Source of the DNA: Candidatus Saccharimonadota bacterium
Lineage (GTDB): Bacteria; Patescibacteriota; Saccharimonadia; Saccharimonadales; UBA4665
Direction: 5' to 3'
Assembly: GCA_002952755.1 (NCBI GenBank)
Contig: CP025011.1
Coordinates: 1,200,001 to 1,232,000 of the forward strand
Length of the DNA stretch: 32,000 nucleotides
The stretch's first letter is position 1; each line of letters begins with the position of its first letter. Under the pieces are notes generated by a model. That model worked only from the letters and a program-made list of their open reading frames with translations, searched no databases and was not told the origin of the DNA. Positions 3,479 through 31,512 of this stretch are shown here, one piece after another. The translations under genes and the position numbers were made by a program.

Positions 3479-4597
3479 CTATTTGATTCTAACATCGGTT
3501 ACGCGCGCATCGACTGCGCCATCAACAAAATCCACTGTTATGACGTCGCCAACTATGAGATCACGCGACTGCATAATGACGCCCTCCTTATGTATAAGCG
3601 CATAGCCACGTTGCAGTACGCTTTCAGGGTCAAAAGCACGAAGCAATTGTCGTTTTACAGTCAGTTGATGCCGGGTATGCACTGCCGCTCTTTCAGCCAT
3701 ATCGAATAAAACCGAACGCGCACCCACTAGGCCCTGCTTGGCATTCTCTAGTATCTGGAAGGTTCTCCGTGCCAGTTGCGTGCGATAGGTGGATAGACCA
3801 GCTACCAACGCCTTTCGGTCCGGTACTAAGAGCTCAGCCGCATTACTCGGCGTGCTAGCGCGAACATCGGCTGCTAGTTCGCTGAGACTTATATCTATCT
3901 CGTGGCCAATCGCAACCAACGTGGGAATACGACTTGCCGCAACCGCGCGCGTCACCTGCTCTGTGCTAAAGGTCTGCAAATCCTCAGGACTGCCTCCGCC
4001 GCGCGTGATAACAAGCACTTCGGGCGGCAAAGGCAACTGATTGCATTGCTCAATTGCAGTCACAATCTGCGCCGGAGCTGAGTCGCCCTGTACTTGCACA
4101 TCGATGTGTATAATCTCAAGGCCGCCCCACCTCGCATTGATAACCTTGCAAAAATCATGATACGCCGCCGATTCCGCCGAGGCGATCAGACCAATCGATG
4201 CAGGCGGATATGGCAATGCCCGCTTACGGTCAGAGTCAAACAAACCTTCAGCTGCCAACTTCGTCTCAAGTAGCGCTGCCGCCTTCTTAATAGACCCTTC
4301 CCCCACTGGCTGTATGCTCAAGATATTCAGACTAAAGCCGTACTGATTATGCAGCCTCGGTGTCGCTCTGACCGCAAGGAGCATGCCATCCTGCAGCGGG
4401 CCGGGTAACTGATAAACCGTTCCAAAGCATCGCACCACTGCTTCGTCGTCTTTTACATCAAAATATACCCAACGATTCTTACTAACCTTAAAATTCACAA
4501 GCTCACCTGTGACTGTAACGTTTGAATACGCATATTCCAGCGTCTGATTCACGTACGCCACAAACTCACTGACGCCGAATGCGAGGTCGCTGCTCAT
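3479..4597 (-). CDS. xseA: Exodeoxyribonuclease VII large subunit
   Basis: It has an N-terminal OB fold (VTVTGELVNFKVSKNRWVYFDVKDDEAVVRC) and a catalytic core (LVITRGGGSPEDL, SAIGHEID-like VAIGHEIDISL). Its ATG forms an ATGA overlap with the upstream stop at 4594..4597. Confidence 0.92.
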   Translation of the reverse strand: MSSDLAFGVSEFVAYVNQTLEYAYSNVTVTGELVNFKVSKNRWVYFDVKDDEAVVRCFGTVYQLPGPLQDGMLLAVRATPRLHNQYGFSLNILSIQPVGEGSIKKAAALLETKLAAEGLFDSDRKRALPYPPASIGLIASAESAAYHDFCKVINARWGGLEIIHIDVQVQGDSAPAQIVTAIEQCNQLPLPPEVLVITRGGGSPEDLQTFSTEQVTRAVAASRIPTLVAIGHEIDISLSELAADVRASTPSNAAELLVPDRKALVAGLSTYRTQLARRTFQILENAKQGLVGARSVLFDMAERAAVHTRHQLTVKRQLLRAFDPESVLQRGYALIHKEGVIMQSRDLIVGDVITVDFVDGAVDARVTDVRIK

Positions 4598-5637
4598 GGT
4601 GACTCAGGCCTACGCAGTGTTCGATGATACAGCACATATCCTGGCGGGATCTGGATGAGCGTGTTCAGCACTCTATACATCACCGTTACCGGTAAACTGA
4701 GAGCCGCGGGGATGCCAGATGCTGCTAACACACCGGTCATCAGTGCCTCGTAAATACCGATCCCACCCGGCAAAACTGATACAAAACCCGCGAAATTAGC
4801 TACCGCGTACGCTAGAATAATTGAACCGACATTCACCCACTTGCCAAAGGCAATGTACACAACGTATACCGTAAATATCTCTGTTATATTAGCGGCGACA
4901 GACCATACAAATGGCCACTTTAGCTCTTTATAGTTTGCTTCAATAAGCTTGTAATTCCCGTGGAACTCCTGCACCAACCGCTCTGCACGTTCAATGCTGA
5001 TTGTCTCCGGATAGTGCGGTCGAAAGATATGGATCACCCGATTTAAGAAGGCTGTAATAGCTGAAAACGTGGCGTGGATGCGTCTCTTCGAACCCATAAT
5101 AAATACAAACGCAAAGGTACCAATTACCAGGACGGTAGAGACCGACCCAGCGACCAACACCACTAGACTATTCGTCCGGCCCCCGATGGCCATAAACACC
5201 AAACCGATTATCAACAAAATTTCGAACGACACAATGACTAAGATAAGCTTCATTAGCTGTACCAACGTAGCCTTGCCGCCGCTGATATCGCCTCTACGCA
5301 TCCGCACTCCGAAATATGAGATACCGCTCACTCCCCCACTTGGAAAAACATGATTTACAAAATTCAGCTCCAGTGCCGCCCTAAGAACAAAACTATAGGT
5401 AAGTTCGTTGCCGACCAGCCGAAAAAGTGTTTGATAAATACGTGTTTGCGCATGGTAATTTGCGACCTGTAGCGGGATCATCAGGGCTAAAATCCAAATG
5501 TTTACTTTGGCCAGATTATTAAAAGTGTCGATAATCTGCTGGCGTATAGCAAAAATAAGTATAAGTAGCGCTGCAACCGTCACTAGATTGACGATCACTT
5601 TCCAGTTTCGCTTCAAAAAACCAGACTGTTTCCCCAT
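4594..5637 (-). CDS. Polytopic membrane protein, UPF0104 / lysyl-phosphatidylglycerol-synthase-TM-region-like (flippase-like)
   Basis: This is ORF 4594..5658 (TTG at 5658), with about 8 predicted TM helices. In-frame ATGs occur at 5643 and 5637. A TATAAT at 5647..5652 on the minus strand sits 9 nt upstream of the 5637 ATG, so I prefer 5637. The family call rests on general architecture only. Confidence 0.6.
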   Translation of the reverse strand: MGKQSGFLKRNWKVIVNLVTVAALLILIFAIRQQIIDTFNNLAKVNIWILALMIPLQVANYHAQTRIYQTLFRLVGNELTYSFVLRAALELNFVNHVFPSGGVSGISYFGVRMRRGDISGGKATLVQLMKLILVIVSFEILLIIGLVFMAIGGRTNSLVVLVAGSVSTVLVIGTFAFVFIMGSKRRIHATFSAITAFLNRVIHIFRPHYPETISIERAERLVQEFHGNYKLIEANYKELKWPFVWSVAANITEIFTVYVVYIAFGKWVNVGSIILAYAVANFAGFVSVLPGGIGIYEALMTGVLAASGIPAALSLPVTVMYRVLNTLIQIPPGYVLYHRTLRRPESP

Positions 5638-5706
5638 ATGCATGCAATTATACGTCAAATCTCGCCTTACCTTCTAACACTCTCCGTGTATGCACCTCTT
5701 TTACGG

Positions 5707-5819
5707 AGATTTCTAGCCACCCTCCTTCCCCAAGTAGAGTCAAGCGTAGTGCAACCAGACCAGCTTTAGCTGGCCTGCGTGTAACGCTCTACTTGGGGAA
5801 GGAGGGTGGCTAGAAATCT
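5707..5819. repeat. Structured palindromic element, copy A (33-bp perfect stem plus 47-nt core loop)
   Basis: 5707..5739 (agatttctagccaccctccttccccaagtagag) is the exact reverse complement of 5787..5819. The 47-nt loop contains an inner hairpin, cagaccagc-ttta-gctggcctg. The reverse complement of 5730..5796 matches 30653..30719 at 62/67 positions. Confidence 0.9.
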
Positions 5820-5839
5820 AGTATACTTATAGGCAGCAT

Positions 5840-7027
5840 ATGGTATATAAAAGTATTCTGATATTGGGACGCCAACCGGCAATTGGCCGCGCCGAGCTTG
5901 AAAGTCTGTATGGCGGTAGGCATCTTGAACCTATCAGTCAGCAGGCTATAGCCCTGGATATTGAGCCCGATACCATTGCCTTTGGGAGACTCGGCGGCAG
6001 TATCCGATTGGGCGTCGTACTTGCTGAAATACCAAGCAAGGAGTGGTCAGTATTAGCACAATATGTAGCCAAAATATTGCCAGAACGGTTGCGCCAGTTA
6101 CCCCAGGAAGGCAAGCTAAAACTCGGCCTCAGCGTCTTTGATAGTACAGTCGACAACCGCCAGCTATTGCGTACCGGGCTGGAATTAAAAAAGATTTGTA
6201 AGAAAACTGGACGCTCAGTACGCCTCGTTCCTAATACCGAGCCAGCGCTCAGCAGCGCTCAAGTCTTACACAATCAACTCACCGGGGATCTTGGCATCGA
6301 ATTCTTGCTTGTTCATAGCGGTACTAAGACGATTCTAGCGCAAACCACTGCCGTCCAGGACATTACCGCCTATGCAGACCGCGATCAAAATCGCCCTAAG
6401 CGAGATGCGCGCGTGGGTATGCTGCCACCCAAGCTGGCGCAGATCATCATCAATCTAGCCACCGGGCTACTAGAGCCGACGAACGCGCATGTCGTGCTCG
6501 ACCCTTTCTGCGGCACAGGGGTAATATTGCAGGAAGCAGCGCTCATGGGCTACGGTAGCTACGGCACAGACCTCGAGCCACGGATGATCGACTACTCTCG
6601 GGCAAATCTGGAATGGCTTGCCGGGCGCCACCATAGCCCACCCTCTACTCTAGAAATTGGTGACGCCACAACGTTTAGCTGGCAGCACCCCTTCTCGGCC
6701 GTCGCAGCTGAAACGTACTTGGGCAGACCGCTCAGCACTTGGCCTAATCCCGAAACCCTCCAAGAAGTAAGGAGCACCTGCAACACCATCCTCGAAAAAT
6801 ATCTGCAGAATATAGCTAGTCAAATACCGAGTGGTTTGCGTCTCTGTTTGGCCATACCGGCCTGGAAAGCTCCAAATGGGCACATTCACCACCTTCCACT
6901 TCTTGACCATCTCGAGAAAATGGGGTACAATCGAGTAAGTTTTGAGTGTGCTGAGGCTCACGATCTGGTCTACTATCGGCCAGAGCAAATTGTAGCCCGC
7001 GAGCTGCTCGTAATAACAAGGAAATAA
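5840..7027 (+). CDS. Putative RNA methyltransferase-fold protein (UPF0020/Trm11-RlmL-like) with an N-terminal THUMP-like region
   Basis: SAM motif I is VLDPFCGTGVILQEAALMG and motif II is YGTDLEP. At the expected motif IV position the sequence reads AAETYLGRP instead of (D/N)PPY. The N-terminal region resembles the RNA-binding modules of this family only loosely. Confidence 0.6.
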   Translation: MVYKSILILGRQPAIGRAELESLYGGRHLEPISQQAIALDIEPDTIAFGRLGGSIRLGVVLAEIPSKEWSVLAQYVAKILPERLRQLPQEGKLKLGLSVFDSTVDNRQLLRTGLELKKICKKTGRSVRLVPNTEPALSSAQVLHNQLTGDLGIEFLLVHSGTKTILAQTTAVQDITAYADRDQNRPKRDARVGMLPPKLAQIIINLATGLLEPTNAHVVLDPFCGTGVILQEAALMGYGSYGTDLEPRMIDYSRANLEWLAGRHHSPPSTLEIGDATTFSWQHPFSAVAAETYLGRPLSTWPNPETLQEVRSTCNTILEKYLQNIASQIPSGLRLCLAIPAWKAPNGHIHHLPLLDHLEKMGYNRVSFECAEAHDLVYYRPEQIVARELLVITRK

Positions 7028-15005: not shown

Positions 15006-15022
15006 AACTGTCGTCTGGTTAT

Positions 15023-15056
15023 AAAAAACAGCCGACCAGAAAGACGGCTGTTTTTT
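15023..15056. terminator. Bidirectional rho-independent terminator
   Basis: The sequence aaaaaacagccg-accagaaaga-cggctgtttttt has a GC stem (cagccg/cggctg) flanked by an A-tract and a T-tract. It therefore reads as a hairpin plus U-run on both strands. Confidence 0.8.
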
Positions 15057-15074
15057 ATAAATGTCGGTTATTCT

Positions 15075-18350: not shown

Positions 18351-20957
18351 CTACTTGCGCTTACGGCCTTGGGCCTTGCGCTGTCGTTCGGCTTTGCGGG
18401 CCTTTTTGCGCATCACAGGTTGCTTCTTGACTGCTGCTTGATTGGCTTCTTTTGCCCTAAAGTCAGCTTCTTCAAACTCATCGTCGCCCGTCAGAATGCG
18501 ATCGGCATTGCTAATAGATTGACGGGCAGCCAGCGTTAATTCAGTTTCGGCGGGTTGCTCGAGCTGAGCAAGGTCGATAGGCTCAGCATGGAAGACCAAA
18601 CGAATAACTTCTTGGCGCAGGTTGGCCTGCATTTCTTCAAACAGCAATTGGCCCTGACGACGATATTCTACCAACGGATCGCGCTGTCCAATACTAATCC
18701 AGTGGATTCCTTCACGCAGGTGGTCCATATTTTCCAAGTGTTGCATCCATAGATTGTCCAGAACCTGTAAATAAATGTCCCGCTCCACTTTACGCATAAT
18801 TTCTTTTGTAAATGCCGCTTCGCGTCCATCGTACAGTTCGTACGCTTCCTTAATTAGAACATCGCTAAACTTATCTGCACCGGTGTCAAATAGCCGATCC
18901 AGACTCGGCTCATCAAGCGGAAATGTCTCGCGCACGATAGACTCAAATTGCTCGGTCAACAAATCTGGCGAGGCGGCGAGCATTCGAGCCTGCTCTTCAA
19001 TAAAAATCTTAACCCGCTTGCTGATATCATCGCTCTTTAAAATTTCCTTACGCATGGCATATGTCGCCTTGCGGTGACGGTTCATCACATCATCATACTG
19101 AACGACATTTTTACGCTGGTCGAAATGGAACCCTTCCACTTTCTTTTGGGCACCTTCCAGCGAGCGGGAGATCAAACGGTTCTCGATTGGCGTCTCGTCA
19201 TCCACTTTCAGACGATCCATGAGGCCTGCGATACGCTCACCACCGAATATACGCATCAGATCGTCTTCGGCACTCACAAAGAACTGGGTTACGCCAGGAT
19301 CCCCCTGTCGTCCTGCACGACCTCGAAGCTGATTATCAATACGGCGCGACTCATGACGCTCCGTGCCTAACACAAACAAACCACCCAGCTCCTTAACCTC
19401 CTCATCAAGCACGATGTCGGTACCACGACCAGCAATATTAGTAGCTAGCGTAACGGCACCTTTTTGCCCAGCACGCGCCACAATTGCCGCTTCTTTTTCG
19501 TTATTTTTGGCATTCAATACTTCATGAGGTACACCTGCCTTAGTCAGCATGCTGCCAAGCAACTCGTTCTTTTCGATTGAGACTGTGCCGAGTAGCACCG
19601 GTTGTCCCTTAGTGTGCAGCATTTTTACTTCTTTGACTATAGCCTTAAACTTACCCTTCTCGTTTTTGTAAATACGGTCCGGACGGTCATTGCGGGCCAA
19701 TTTACGGTTGGCTGGTACTTCTACAACGTCGAGTTTATAGATTTGGTGGAATTCCTCGGCCTCAGTTACTGCCGTCCCCGTCATGCCAGACAGTCTTTCA
19801 TACAAACGGAAATAATTCTGAAACGAAATAGTTGCCAATGTCATGCTTTCTTGCTGAACTTCGACCCCTTCCTTGGCCTCTATTGCTTGATGCAAGCCCT
19901 CGTTATAGCGTCGACCCTTTAGCAAGCGGCCTGTGAATTCGTCAACGATCACGATTTCGCCGTCATTGGTAGCTACGTAATCTTTATCACGCTTAAAGAG
20001 CGCCTGAGCACGAAGCGCCTGTTCAAGGTGATAAATGGTGCGGATGTTTTCGGTGGCATAGAGGTTGCTCACACCCAACACTTTTTCTACTTTGTCGACA
20101 CCCTTCTCGGTGAGGATAACTGTCTTGCGCTTTTCGTCTACCTCATAATGCTTTTCGTTCTCAAGTTGGCGAGCTACTTTAGCGAACTGCGCATAGGCGT
20201 TACCGCTCGTCACGCTGGGTGCGGAAATAATTAAGGGGGTGCGGGCTTCGTCGATCAAAATAGAGTCGGCTTCGTCCACAATAGCAAAGTGCAGATCACG
20301 CTGCGCAAGCTGATCTACTTCGCGGACCATATTGTCGCGTAAGTAGTCGAACCCAAACTCATTATTAGTGCCATACGTAATGTCAGCGGTGTACGCTTCG
20401 CGGCGTGATGCCGGCTTGAGGTGACGAAAACGGTCGTCCTCGTGCTCAGTGTTTGTAAAATCTGGGTCGTAAATATAGGAATGATCAGCAATAATAACGC
20501 CAACCGTCATCCCCAGGAATGAATAGACCTTCCCCATCCAGCCCGCATCGCGCTGGGCCAGATACTCGTTTACTGTAACTACGTGCGCACCTTTTCCAGT
20601 GAGCGCATTCAGATACACGGGCAGCGTCGCCACCAACGTCTTACCTTCACCCGTCTTCATCTCGGCCACGTTACCTTCATGCAAAACCATGCCACCAATA
20701 AGTTGGACGTCGAAATGACGTAAGCCTATTGTTCTGTCGGCTGCCTCGCGCATGACTGCAAAAGCATCGGGCAGTATCTTATCAAGACTTTCTTTTTTGA
20801 GGCGCTTTTTGAGTACGCCCGTTTGCTCCTTGAGTTTACTGTCGGACATCTTCTTATAGGTATCGGCTACCGCGTTCACCTCGCGGACGCGCTTTTTGAG
20901 GCGCTTCACGGTGCGTGCTTGCGGATCACCAAGCAATTTCTTTAGCAGACCATTCAT
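18351..20957 (-). CDS. secA: Preprotein translocase ATPase SecA
   Basis: Walker A MKTGEGKT and the DEAD-like FAIVDEADSILIDEARTPLIIS are present, along with TNMAGRGTDI-like TNIAGRGTDI and RGRAGRQGDPG. It has a basic C-terminal tail without a Cys-rich zinc motif. Confidence 0.98.
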   Translation of the reverse strand: MNGLLKKLLGDPQARTVKRLKKRVREVNAVADTYKKMSDSKLKEQTGVLKKRLKKESLDKILPDAFAVMREAADRTIGLRHFDVQLIGGMVLHEGNVAEMKTGEGKTLVATLPVYLNALTGKGAHVVTVNEYLAQRDAGWMGKVYSFLGMTVGVIIADHSYIYDPDFTNTEHEDDRFRHLKPASRREAYTADITYGTNNEFGFDYLRDNMVREVDQLAQRDLHFAIVDEADSILIDEARTPLIISAPSVTSGNAYAQFAKVARQLENEKHYEVDEKRKTVILTEKGVDKVEKVLGVSNLYATENIRTIYHLEQALRAQALFKRDKDYVATNDGEIVIVDEFTGRLLKGRRYNEGLHQAIEAKEGVEVQQESMTLATISFQNYFRLYERLSGMTGTAVTEAEEFHQIYKLDVVEVPANRKLARNDRPDRIYKNEKGKFKAIVKEVKMLHTKGQPVLLGTVSIEKNELLGSMLTKAGVPHEVLNAKNNEKEAAIVARAGQKGAVTLATNIAGRGTDIVLDEEVKELGGLFVLGTERHESRRIDNQLRGRAGRQGDPGVTQFFVSAEDDLMRIFGGERIAGLMDRLKVDDETPIENRLISRSLEGAQKKVEGFHFDQRKNVVQYDDVMNRHRKATYAMRKEILKSDDISKRVKIFIEEQARMLAASPDLLTEQFESIVRETFPLDEPSLDRLFDTGADKFSDVLIKEAYELYDGREAAFTKEIMRKVERDIYLQVLDNLWMQHLENMDHLREGIHWISIGQRDPLVEYRRQGQLLFEEMQANLRQEVIRLVFHAEPIDLAQLEQPAETELTLAARQSISNADRILTGDDEFEEADFRAKEANQAAVKKQPVMRKKARKAERQRKAQGRKRK

Positions 20958-26410: not shown

Positions 26411-27226
26411 CTAACGCACTCCTGTTGCGACCTGCCATGCAACTGCGCTAGCCATAGCAAAACCGAGTAGCAGATACATCTTTTCTGTATAGACAACGTT
26501 CGTCCATTGGCCACGCCCTTTCCACCGGAAAGCGGTAGCCATAACAAACGCTCCCGAGAATATGAAGGTACTCGCATAGACTGCCCAAAGATACGCGGGC
26601 ACGTGACCACCATATGCAGCAGCAGCTACAACACTCTTTATAATAACCACCCACGGCATAACTGCGCCCACTCCAGCCAACACCGCCAGCAACTTATGCA
26701 AACCAGAGCGATTCGCACCGAGTAGCTCTACCGACAATGCAAGAAGTGAGGCCAAAAATACACTCATCCATATAAAACTAAGTGTTGTGAGATCATTCAG
26801 GCCACTCATAAGGCTAAGTGTCGTGAGTATCAGACCGCCGCCAAGACCAATCGTCAACCATCGTATCTTATTCACTCCACGCTCCAAGCTCGCCAGGTAT
26901 TTCTTTTTACCTGAAGTAGCAGCGTACATATGCCCGGCTGCAAAAATAAGCAAGAAAGCGACCGCCACGTACGACAAGCGTACATCAAATAAATGCCGCG
27001 TTGCCGTCGCGAGCACCTGGTGCTTATTGGCCGTGGTGGCAAGTTGGTCGACAGAGGGGTATCGCACTGTTATTGCTTCACTAAATTTATTGCCAACGAT
27101 TACCACACCTACGGCTTGCGCCGCTAGGAATAGCGCTGCTCTTAGATTCCATATACCTAATGTTTGTTGTTTTGCGGGCGCGACAACTGTCTCGCTCTTC
27201 TTATTCGTCGTTGCTTTTTTTGCCAT
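26411..27226 (-). CDS. Heliorhodopsin-family 7-TM protein apparently lacking the retinal-binding Lys
   Basis: It has seven TM helices. YLASLERGVNKIRWLTIGLGGG and RWKGRGQWTNVVYTEKMYLLLGFAMASAVAWQVATG align, from my memory of heliorhodopsin 48C12, to YSASLMKNQNIFRWVEYSLSSS and QYKGKGKWSNYLRGERAYIVLSLVAKSALAWQIFSG. The Schiff-base Lys position is Ala and the counterion Glu position is Thr. Confidence 0.7.
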   Translation of the reverse strand: MAKKATTNKKSETVVAPAKQQTLGIWNLRAALFLAAQAVGVVIVGNKFSEAITVRYPSVDQLATTANKHQVLATATRHLFDVRLSYVAVAFLLIFAAGHMYAATSGKKKYLASLERGVNKIRWLTIGLGGGLILTTLSLMSGLNDLTTLSFIWMSVFLASLLALSVELLGANRSGLHKLLAVLAGVGAVMPWVVIIKSVVAAAAYGGHVPAYLWAVYASTFIFSGAFVMATAFRWKGRGQWTNVVYTEKMYLLLGFAMASAVAWQVATGVR

Positions 27227-29765: not shown

Positions 29766-30599
29766 ATGTTGACCGCTGTGTCTGCAATACGAAACTACTT
29801 TGCTAAACTCGATTTTGAGCCGGAAATTGCCGACCTCTATCTTGCTTTGCACGCGCATGGACCGCAAAGTATATCCGAGCTCTCACGGAATGCCCAGGTA
29901 GAACGCACCCGCATTTACCGCCTTATCGACCGCTTAATGGAATCCAATCTTATAGAAGTGGAAATGCAGCATAGGCGCGGCATAATAAAAGCGGCCCCAA
30001 TTGCCAATCTGCGAATCCTTATCGCCCAAAAGGCGCAGGACCTCAAAAGCCTGCAAGACGAATTAGAAATGCTTGAACAGGTTTTGGCGCGCAATAGCCT
30101 CAGCGATCCAGCCAGTCGAGTTCAGTTCTACCCTGGACTGGCGGGCCGCAAACAAATGCTATGGAACGAGGCCCAGGCAAAAACGGAGGTACTCTGTATA
30201 ACATCTAGGATCGACCAGCCAAAGACCCATACCACTTTTTACAATCGCTGGGTGGCAGCGTGCAATGCCAATGAGATCCACTTCCGCGAGATCCACAGTG
30301 ACACCTTCCATGAAACTTCTAAAAATTGGTACGCCAAAAGCAATAATGATCACCTCCGCTTTTACGACGCCCGTTGCATAAGTAAGGCACTACTGGCCAT
30401 TACCCACTCCGTAGATATATACGATAACGTGGTCGCCTATTATCTATGGAAGGATGGGGAAATATTCGGTATTGAGATGTACAATCAAGACATCGCCAAT
30501 ATGCAACGGCGTTTCTTTGAGATACTTTGGACACAGGCAACGACTGAGGAGAATTCCTTTCTATCTAGGCCGAAAGCACTCAAGAAGCCTACAAAATAA
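29766..30599 (+). CDS. TrmB-like winged-helix transcriptional regulator with an uncharacterised C-terminal domain
   Basis: The N-terminal IADLYLALHAHGPQSISELSRNAQVERTRIYRLIDRLMESNLIEVE is typical of the TrmB-type wHTH and is followed by a coiled-coil linker. The track start at 29676 is a GTG inside the operator region, so I prefer the ATG at 29766. Confidence 0.7.
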   Translation: MLTAVSAIRNYFAKLDFEPEIADLYLALHAHGPQSISELSRNAQVERTRIYRLIDRLMESNLIEVEMQHRRGIIKAAPIANLRILIAQKAQDLKSLQDELEMLEQVLARNSLSDPASRVQFYPGLAGRKQMLWNEAQAKTEVLCITSRIDQPKTHTTFYNRWVAACNANEIHFREIHSDTFHETSKNWYAKSNNDHLRFYDARCISKALLAITHSVDIYDNVVAYYLWKDGEIFGIEMYNQDIANMQRRFFEILWTQATTEENSFLSRPKALKKPTK

Positions 30600-30634: not shown

Positions 30635-30737
30635 GACACCCATCTCCACTCTCCAAGTAGAGCGTTACACGCAGGCCGACTAAAGTCGGTCTGGTTGCAC
30701 TAAGCTTGACTCTACTTGGAGAGCTGAGATGGGTGTC
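30635..30737. repeat. Structured palindromic element, copy B (core inverted relative to copy A)
   Basis: The arms 30635..30646 / 30726..30737 and 30650..30662 / 30710..30722 are exact complements, separated by a 3x3 internal mismatch (cac / gct). The 47-nt loop at 30663..30709 equals the reverse complement of the copy A loop at 42/47 positions. Confidence 0.9.
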
Positions 30738-30748
30738 TAACTTAGCTA

Positions 30749-30777
30749 TTGACTAAATAGCATAAAGAGTGTACAAT
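30749..30777 (+). promoter_or_regulatory. Sigma70-type promoter of the surface-protein gene
   Basis: TTGACT (30749..30754) is followed by a 17-nt spacer and TACAAT (30772..30777). An AAGGAG SD lies upstream of the ATG at 30832. Confidence 0.65.
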
Positions 30778-30831
30778 TATTTTCATATCTCATTCGGAGC
30801 GAGAGACTTCGGGAGGGAGTAAGGAGTTCAT

Positions 30832-31512
30832 ATGAAGAGTTCTATTAAGATTGTAAGTTCGAGCATCACGGGCGTTGCTATTGCGGGCCTTATTGCCGCT
30901 CCAGCTTTCGCCTGCACACCTAAGGGTGTCATCACCAAATACGTGCAAGATAAAACAACTAATAGTCAGATGGTTGACGCCAATACTGAGGCAAGCGCAT
31001 TAGTCGTACATCCTGGCGATACACTTATCTATACAGTTGTCGTCGGAAACCAAGGTGGTCCATCGGGAGATGGTGTCGATGACATGATCAACACCAAGAT
31101 GACCGACAATTTGCCTACTGGCCTGACGCCTGTAAGCGGCAGCAAAGCCATCGTCGAAGATCTTGGTACAGTCAAAGAACAGAAGACCGTTACTAAGACG
31201 TACACGGTGACCGTAGACGCCAATACCACTAATGGACAGGTCATCACCAACAAAGCTTGCTACACTGGTCAGGCAACCAATAAAGACAGCAAGCAGGACC
31301 AGGCCGGTTGCGATGTTGCCATCATAAAAATAAGCGTCCCCCCTGTTACTCCGCCAGTCACCCCTCCTTCAACCCCTACACCACAACCAGTGCCCCAAAC
31401 ACTCGTTAACACTGGGGCCGGTAACCTCGTTGTTCCAACAGGGGTGGCCGCAAGTCTCGGTTACGCTGGTAACATGCTTCGTCTGAAGCGTCGTGCTAGC
31501 AAGCGCGCCTAA
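30832..31512 (+). CDS. Secreted DUF11-like surface protein with a Pro-rich stalk and an LPXTG-like (LVNTG) cell-wall sorting signal
   Basis: It has a signal peptide (…LIAAPAFA/C) and a DUF11-type segment (GDTLIYTVVVGNQGGPSG ... DNLPTGLTPV). The stalk PPVTPPVTPPSTPTPQPVPQ is followed by LVNTG, a hydrophobic stretch and the basic tail RLKRRASKRA. Confidence 0.8.
   Translation: MKSSIKIVSSSITGVAIAGLIAAPAFACTPKGVITKYVQDKTTNSQMVDANTEASALVVHPGDTLIYTVVVGNQGGPSGDGVDDMINTKMTDNLPTGLTPVSGSKAIVEDLGTVKEQKTVTKTYTVTVDANTTNGQVITNKACYTGQATNKDSKQDQAGCDVAIIKISVPPVTPPVTPPSTPTPQPVPQTLVNTGAGNLVVPTGVAASLGYAGNMLRLKRRASKRA

Follow-up and report, generated by a model that had tools for sequence, protein, structure and literature searches.

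The presence of a long, stable hairpin in the short space between a regulator gene and the promoter of a surface-protein gene raises the question of whether the hairpin acts on the genes beside it, or is a repeat that has simply come to rest there. The hairpin considered here (copy B) occupies positions 30635-30737 of the window, the stretch of 32,000 nucleotides that was analysed, and a related hairpin (copy A) lies 24.9 kb away at 5707-5819. Palindromic interspersed repeats are a known kind of element, although a conserved interior with hypervariable complementary termini, as found in this family, departs from the usual pattern. For Saccharibacteria and other CPR bacteria there are hardly any descriptions of interspersed repeats, and nothing comparable was found in the searchable literature.

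Host and genetic context

Proteins homologous to those encoded beside the element carry the label Candidatus Saccharimonadales and, judged from these matches, the host is a Candidatus Saccharimonadales (CPR) bacterium; the source contig measures 1,450,269 bp. The protein collection contains no close relative: SecA, TrmB and the methyltransferase are each the sole member of their 90% cluster, and the best orthologues of the flanking proteins are 69-73% identical (88% for ribosomal protein S2). Upstream of copy B is a TrmB-like regulator gene on the plus strand (29766-30599; PF01978, E = 1.9e-8), for which 29766 is the likeliest start and the exact 277-aa product is on record. Downstream, and also on the plus strand, is a gene for a DUF11 surface protein (30832-31512) with a signal-peptide-like N-terminus and an LVNTG sorting signal; the C-terminal part (31390-31512) runs from LVNTG through a hydrophobic stretch to KRRASKRA, the arrangement of a sortase-type cell-wall sorting signal. 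The DUF11 promoter, TTGACT-17-TACAAT (30749-30777, plus strand, 10/12 matches), is the sole promoter-like site in the copy B region. No promoter was found inside the element, where an internal TTGACT hexamer lacks a -10 partner. The position of copy B between the TrmB-like gene and the surface-protein promoter, as given in the initial annotation, was confirmed: the first nucleotide of the element is the 36th after the stop codon of TrmB (TAA, 30597-30599), and the -35 box TTGACT is indeed at 30749, with the element ending 11 nt before it.

Copy B is flanked by co-directional genes, whereas copy A lies between divergent gene starts, namely those of an LPG_synthase_TM-family membrane protein gene (4594-5643, minus strand) and a Trm11-like methyltransferase gene (5840-7027, plus strand), both transcribed away from it. 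The methyltransferase -10 box is a palindrome, AGTATACT (5820-5827), which reads TATACT on either strand; the TATACT at 5822 begins 3 nt past the right arm of copy A, as had been noted. The palindrome AGTATACT is conserved in the relatives L032 and L033 and could serve both divergent genes, which are apparently leaderless or nearly so. On the strand on which the two copies correspond, plus for copy B and minus for copy A, each copy is located upstream of an envelope gene in the sense direction, namely DUF11 for B (plus strand) and LPG_synthase_TM for A (minus strand).

Structure of the two hairpins

Copy B is a complete hairpin element of 103 nt, supported by its inverted repeat, its fold z and a covariance model, and the earlier description of a 103-nt hairpin with a 47-nt loop is borne out by the inverted-repeat search and by folding. 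Its pyrimidine-rich left arm (30635-30662) and purine-rich right arm (30710-30737) are 28 nt each and 93% complementary, with 26 of 28 positions pairing, and enclose a 47-nt loop (30663-30709, plus strand). The outer 18 nt of the left arm are variable and its inner 10 nt (CCAAGTAGAG) are conserved between the copies, as are the inner 10 nt of the right arm (CTCTACTTGG). The interruption in the stem had been read as a 3x3 mismatch, which is wrong: it is a 2x2 internal loop (C.T and A.C), the third position being a normal C-G pair. Within the loop is an inner hairpin, CAGGCCGAC-TAAA-GTCGGTCTG (30672-30693, plus strand), with nine pairs including one G-T/G-U, which is a standard pair on the plus strand only. 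The 67-nt core common to both copies (30653-30719, plus strand) is bounded by a perfect 10-bp inverted repeat.

As RNA, copy B has a minimum free energy of -65.3 kcal/mol compared with -30.9 +/- 3.5 in dinucleotide shuffles (z = -9.7), and none of 200 shuffles was as good. The reverse strand is nearly equal to the plus strand (RNA fold z = -8.6), and folding as DNA gives z = -9.1. The covariance model, built from both copies, scores the plus strand of copy B at 127.8 bits and the minus strand of copy A at 125 bits. There is no T-run downstream of copy B, so the initial annotation was right that, having no U-tract, it is no canonical intrinsic terminator.

Copy A is a hairpin of 113 nt whose perfect arms (5707-5739 and 5787-5819) are 33 nt each and 100% complementary, with a fold z of -13 and a core that is inverted relative to copy B. 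Its loop is 47 nt, as in copy B, in agreement with what was first reported, and its 67-nt conserved core lies at 5730-5796, where the minus strand matches the plus strand of copy B. The outermost 10 nt of the left arm, AGATTTCTAG (5707-5716), are an inverted copy of the right-arm end CTAGAAATCT (5810-5819). The final 8 nt of the right arm (AGAAATCT) align with native flank (AGAAGTCT) in L032, where the empty site reads ...ACCTCTTTCTAAAGAAGTCTTGTATACTTAT..., and the window left flank (ACCTCTTT), AGAAATCT and the -10 box all align to native L032 sequence. Since AGAAATCT is aligned to native flank, the left-arm end AGATTTCTAG would be an inverted copy of that flank. On the basis of this alignment, an element of 5717-5809 may have inserted at CTAG within a small native palindrome, with duplication of CTAG, or the palindrome may have grown outward into the flank. 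The CTAG...CTAG that flanks copy A is uninformative as a target-site duplication, because CTAG is itself palindromic and also part of the arms. An element reaching further into the flanks, from which an orientation could have been defined and loop inversion revealed, was considered and dropped, as flank alignments were no better than those of shuffles.

Conservation and variation between the copies

The cores of copies A and B are reverse complements of each other over 73 nt (5727-5799 and 30650-30722, 90%), with a BLAST match of 67 nt (92.5%, E = 3e-22), and the opposite orientation claimed for them is thereby confirmed. When the plus strand of copy B is aligned with the minus strand of copy A, the differences between these two sequences are very unevenly distributed. 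None of the 20 positions of the inner 10-bp stem differs, nor do more than 1 of the 29 unpaired loop positions, and the inner hairpin stem differs at 4 of 18 positions, which amount to two fully compensated pairs. Loop and inner 10-bp stem together thus differ at 5/67 positions, compared with 15/30 in the outer arms (outer arms versus core, Fisher p = 6e-6). As the left arms are almost pure C/T, the resulting 50% identity is the level expected of unrelated sequences; the outer arms of A and B are effectively unrelated in sequence, with length, composition and complementarity in common.

Complementarity is nevertheless maintained within each copy. At each of the eight changed pairs both partners have changed, one-sided changes being absent, and 97% of the cells in the A/B structure pair, as against 37-53% when partner columns are slid. 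Exchange of C-G for U-A accounts for 6/8 changed pairs and a G-U intermediate for none. Only one G-U pair occurs, located in the inner hairpin; the two copies have it at an identical position, and it counts as a standard pair on the B plus/A minus strand alone. The lack of G-U among the changed pairs, the two-sided changes and the 33/33 pairing of copy A mean that both strands fold equally well, which fits a DNA-level palindrome. In this family, then, the loop of 47 nt and the inner stem of 10 bp (CCAAGTAGAG/CTCTACTTGG) are conserved, and the outer arms of 15-23 bp differ between copies but are complementary within each. A conserved inside with variable ends is the opposite of a normal MITE, and is a classic signature of selected structure.

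Empty sites in related genomes

The nearest available relatives retain the gene order on either side of both sites. Comparison of the regulator/surface-protein spacer for presence or absence of the element, as the initial annotation had proposed, revealed that site B is empty in L030, L031 and L135/L136. The TrmB-to-DUF11 spacer measures 232 nt in the window, 117 nt in L030 and 179 nt in L135/L136; in L031 an extra gene separates TrmB and DUF11, and the region upstream of its DUF11 gene is also without the element. Site A is empty in L032, L033 and L034, with spacers of 64, 47 and 33 nt compared with 196 nt in the window. Absence of the element at the orthologous sites in three relatives each indicates that both copies are insertions, although the relatives with empty sites are distant (69-73% identity in flanking proteins, 88% in ribosomal protein S2). 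No core-like sequence was found in approximately 94 kb of the relatives' DNA, either by BLAST or with the covariance model from both copies.

The promoter (TTGACT...TATACT) and a conserved 5'UTR are kept in all three site B relatives, and the two -10 boxes at site A are likewise conserved. Promoters conserved in relatives without the element must be older than the element and independent of it. Both copies have landed in tiny intergenic spacers by pre-existing promoters, and in spacers so short adjacency to a promoter was unavoidable. The initial annotation took the opposite direction of the two cores relative to their promoters as favouring a function independent of orientation. This is not supported, as both copies are insertions and the adjoining promoters are conserved without them; the opposite orientations are what random insertion of a repeat would give. 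Moreover, the orientation argument hinges on which gene is chosen for reference, as the B plus/A minus strand puts both copies sense-upstream of envelope genes.

Several minor features of site B emerged from the same alignments. In the closest relative, TrmB is followed by a small hairpin. The DUF11 promoter and the roughly 55 nt of 5'UTR that follow it (catatctcattcggag..gagag.cttcg.gagggagtaaggag) have been conserved among relatives with approximately 70% protein identity (window 30749-30831; L030 10845-10927; L031 12931-13014; L135 1930-2015), and the 5'UTR may be a structured leader. In the relatives an A/T-rich stretch (CTTTTTAACAAAAACA) lies between GCTATTG and the -35 box, and it is missing in the window (30738-30748, compared with L030 10825-10845), suggesting that the DUF11 promoter of the window has lost a UP-like region beside the inserted element.

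A probable third copy

In public Logan assemblies (k=31) of three sequencing runs, contigs that match the window at 100% identity stop within both copies of the element. In the 50.8 kb of reconstructed source genome just three canonical 31-mers are repeated, all of them in the perfect arms of copy A; they predict contig ends at 5736 and 5790, and the ends are observed exactly there. Copy B has no repeated 31-mer within the 50.8 kb, yet in every sample one contig stops at 30680 and the next begins at 30673. At k=31, such breaks require an exact repeat of the 52-nt stretch 30651-30702 at another locus, and a third copy of the element therefore probably exists in the genome, as read from these assembly breaks. 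The presumed third copy would contain the inner hairpin of copy B, and would differ from copy B at 30650, within the arm, and at 30703, a position at which copy A also differs from B.

A further reproducible contig end, beyond rpmE, was examined as another copy and rejected, as homology with a relative places it at the 5' end of the prfA coding region. The Logan contig concerned, common to the three samples (L132 1-75, about 10 kb beyond the window end), ends 70 nt inside that coding region. The CT-rich N-terminal coding stretch of prfA (ACCCATCTC..TCTCC, CCAGAC, TTTAG, TGCGT) has its motifs in the same order as the minus strand of copy B (p ~0.01). This weak resemblance could be due to chance or could mark a degenerate intragenic relative of the element, and the stretch was not accepted as a member.

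Searches for homologues

No homologue of the element was found in Rfam, GTDB genomes, JGI metagenomes, IMG/VR, or phage and plasmid collections, and BLAST against the phage and plasmid collections gave no match. Exact-pattern searches for the core returned sequences that were discarded: 8 chance matches in coding DNA of unrelated phyla among GTDB species genomes and 13 chance matches in JGI metagenomes, the source species being evidently absent from both, together with AT-rich or phage portal-gene sequence in IMG/VR, also unrelated. BLAST and the covariance model detected no copies beyond A and B in the 50.8 kb of source genome, and no diverged copies were found by covariance model in 145 kb that included five loci from relatives. 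There were no Rfam matches for the window at gathering thresholds. The best sub-threshold matches, MIR1862 (40.7 bits against a threshold of 84) and MIR6440 (19.9 against 95), are plant miRNA precursors, and are explained by the generic nature of a long hairpin. Neither tRNA nor tmRNA is present. Neither copy contains an open reading frame with a start codon or a called gene, and a profile of the open frame that runs through the core, meant to catch spurious open reading frames annotated over further copies, had no match in 1.84 billion protein representatives.

The element as a probable dispersed palindromic repeat

The family is rather more probably than otherwise a lineage-specific, non-coding, MITE-like palindromic dispersed repeat, of which copy B is one member. 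In form it resembles a miniature mobile element of the foldback type, non-autonomous, more than a control switch dedicated to the genes beside it. Small size, terminal inverted repeats, an intergenic site and a stable stem-loop make up the published description of prokaryotic MITEs (PMC10969869). Such elements are <500 bp and carry no transposase or other open reading frame (PMC10969869); the two copies are 103 and 113 nt, with no start-codon open reading frame and no match to the peptide of the open frame. Terminal inverted repeats of MITEs are ~4-30 bp (PMC10969869), and the arms here are 28 nt (93%) and 33 nt (100%), with only the inner 10 bp conserved between copies. Dispersal is apparent from two copies and a third inferred from the k=31 breaks, and insertion polymorphism from the sites that are empty in three relatives each, all of them distant. 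Flanking direct repeats of MITEs decay with age (PMC10969869), and the flanks of copy B (...ctccg / taact...) have no duplication. A MITE would be expected to have a related autonomous insertion sequence with matching ends, mobilising it in trans (PMC10969869), and the 50.8 kb examined of the 1.45-Mb source genome contain neither a transposase nor a parent insertion sequence. AT-richness is typical of MITEs, though not strict (PMC10969869), and the elements have a GC content of 0.53-0.54, compared with 0.47-0.52 in the window and approximately 49% in the genome. The most telling misfit with the MITE description is the variability of the termini. In addition, the searches of public collections recovered no family member, and mobility across genomes is thus putative.

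Known families of comparable form include the Correia/NEMIS elements of Neisseria, ERIC/IRU of enterobacteria, RUP of pneumococcus and QMITE of Coxiella, which are likewise about 100 nt, non-coding and palindromic (PMC10969869, PMC3184786). The MITE-like character extends to terminal inverted repeats of 28-33 nt, intergenic location in either orientation, presence or absence among related genomes, a very stable stem-loop if transcribed, and a frequent position beside promoters or gene ends. Unlike Correia, ERIC, RUP and QMITE, the present element has no sequence similarity to these families, no clear target-site duplication, no parent insertion sequence in view and no AT-richness; and unlike elements whose ends are bound by a transposase, its termini are least conserved and its interior most. 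REP sequences are palindromes of 20-40 bp with an unpaired GTAG/CGTC tag by the stem, mobilised by RAYT transposases (PMC3733652). Like REP/BIME, the element is a palindromic repeat outside genes for which structure counts more than sequence in recognition, and it contains GTAG (30657-30660); the unit is however 103-113 nt, and GTAG occurs only within the paired inner stem, at a distance of 11 nt from the inner hairpin of 22 nt. No gene for a RAYT was detected in the source DNA examined.

The attC sites of integrons are imperfect palindromes whose arms vary yet stay complementary, with the folded strand being recognised; their conserved boxes are at the outer ends (RYYYAAC/GTTRRRY) and their centre is variable. 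The present element is of similar length, and its arms also vary between copies but remain complementary. It differs in having a conserved centre and variable ends, and no R-box motifs, cassette array or nearby integrase. Quasi-palindrome template switching introduces mirrored changes in both arms at once, so that palindromes are perfected or extended into the flank; Ripley and the Lovett laboratory have reportedly worked on quasipalindrome mutagenesis. The 33/33 pairing of the copy A arms and their flank-derived outer 8-10 bp fit such correction. It is nevertheless a mutational process and not an element family, and leaves the conservation of the loop and the origin of new copies unexplained. 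Insertion of the core into pre-existing pyrimidine/purine hairpins was also considered and rejected, as no such empty hairpins occur in the 50.8 kb or at the relatives' empty sites.

For a MITE-like repeat, copies would be made by a transposition- or recombination-like process supplied in trans, and the orientation of insertion would be arbitrary. By analogy with quasi-palindromes elsewhere, hairpin-templated correction at the DNA level may keep the arms of each copy complementary, and could likewise carry the palindrome outward into flanking sequence, a possibility suggested by copy A. Effects on neighbouring genes would be incidental. The TrmB mRNA would end in copy B, whose 28-bp RNA duplex might act as a 3' stabiliser or as a target of RNase III, as for Correia and ERIC elements.

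Alternative explanations

The pattern of conservation could also arise if the element were a functional structured RNA, that is, a duplicated small RNA gene or a cis-acting leader read from the plus strand of B and the minus strand of A, an explanation we regard as fairly unlikely. A protein or RNA partner would recognise the 47-nt multi-branch loop, and the closing stem, needing only to pair, would drift by compensatory change. Conserved loops (1/29) beside outer arms that differ at 15/30 positions (p = 6e-6), covarying stems, eight pairs changed on both sides with none broken one-sidedly, and a sole G-U that both copies share and that is standard on B plus/A minus only, are all as such an RNA would predict. 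On this strand, too, both copies are sense-upstream of the envelope genes DUF11 and LPG_synthase_TM, and the -10 palindrome AGTATACT also reads TATACT toward copy A on the minus strand. Yet the element is absent in three relatives per site while the neighbouring genes and their own promoters are conserved, and in both cases a recognisable promoter lies downstream of the element, which is thus outside the main 5'UTRs. Rfam offers only sub-threshold plant miRNA precursors. Changed pairs without G-U and the 33 perfect pairs of copy A, a substrate for RNase III, would be unusual for selection at the RNA level, and with two sequences covariation is indistinguishable from hairpin-templated correction of DNA. 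The strictly Watson-Crick arms, including the 33-bp perfect inverted repeats round a short asymmetric loop in copy A, would fit a site acting at the DNA level. Such a site might be a protein-bound cruciform or hairpin, a site of recombination, or a segment whose 47-nt loop is invertible, in which last case the opposite core orientations of A and B would be two states of a switch. Both strands fold about equally as DNA and RNA, the arms are orientation-neutral so that the loop alone gives direction, and both copies are just upstream of promoters. Such a site is still very unlikely. No recombinase, transposase or nucleoid-protein gene is beside either copy, and the promoters, conserved in relatives without the element, are presumably functional there. 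The contig breaks are fully explained by repeated 31-mers, with no sign of two loop orientations; a flipped copy B loop would break contigs at 30662/30710 and not at 30680/30673. Moreover, a 47-nt spacer is short for recombination between the arms.

It is extremely improbable that copy B is a terminator or insulator without a U-tract, blocking read-through from TrmB into the surface-protein promoter. Its position, 35 nt past the TrmB stop and 11 nt before the -35 box in a spacer with no other terminator, would suit this role, as would the small hairpin after TrmB in the closest relative. However, copy A, with the same core, lies between divergent gene starts with nothing to terminate and so cannot be a terminator, and no T-run follows copy B in a genome that has canonical hairpin-plus-T-tract terminators. 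A canonical bidirectional intrinsic terminator (AAAAAACAGCCG...CGGCTGTTTTTT) at 15017-15062 of the window indicates that ordinary T-tract terminators are in use. A bolder explanation, and an unlikely one, is that the family is a new CPR element specified by structure, be it a structured-RNA gene that is mobile or a transposon of hairpin form, with the 47-nt loop and the 10-bp inner stem as the recognised parts. The outer stem could then have any sequence, or be built anew with every insertion, in part from flanking DNA as the end of copy A hints, and hairpin-templated copying could keep it perfectly complementary. An element of this kind would differ both from MITEs and REPs, in which the ends are conserved, and from attC sites, in which the outer boxes are.

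Implications and related observations

The genomes of Saccharibacteria and other CPR bacteria are small and tightly packed, and a mobile hairpin within a few bases of promoters could alter the expression of neighbouring genes. Short-read assemblies are interrupted by the element at fixed points, with consequences for metagenome-assembled genomes of these bacteria. If it is simply a MITE, it is ordinary for bacteria generally, but would be the first record for the Saccharibacteria lineage. Its invariant loop and fast-changing complementary arms provide a test case for selection on a folded nucleic acid as opposed to correction of a palindrome at the DNA level.

Elsewhere in the window, a heliorhodopsin gene (PF18761) lies at 26411-27226 on the minus strand and is syntenic in relatives. 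Upstream of the window start, L016 7587-14513 carries genes for KwaB (Kiwa defence), a PIF1-like helicase with an HRDC domain, a second TrmB-like protein and RadC, and this cluster may be a defence or mobile island. Another long hairpin, of 87 nt, occurs in L030 at 20013-20099 (GCA_035478295.1), between genes for an M50 peptidase and UppS, with 34-nt arms that are 82% complementary and a 19-nt loop; the lineage of the window has 24 nt only at this site. It was rejected as a family member, being unrelated in sequence and single-copy in the data. Insertions of different long hairpins may be recurrent in the intergenic regions of Saccharimonadales.
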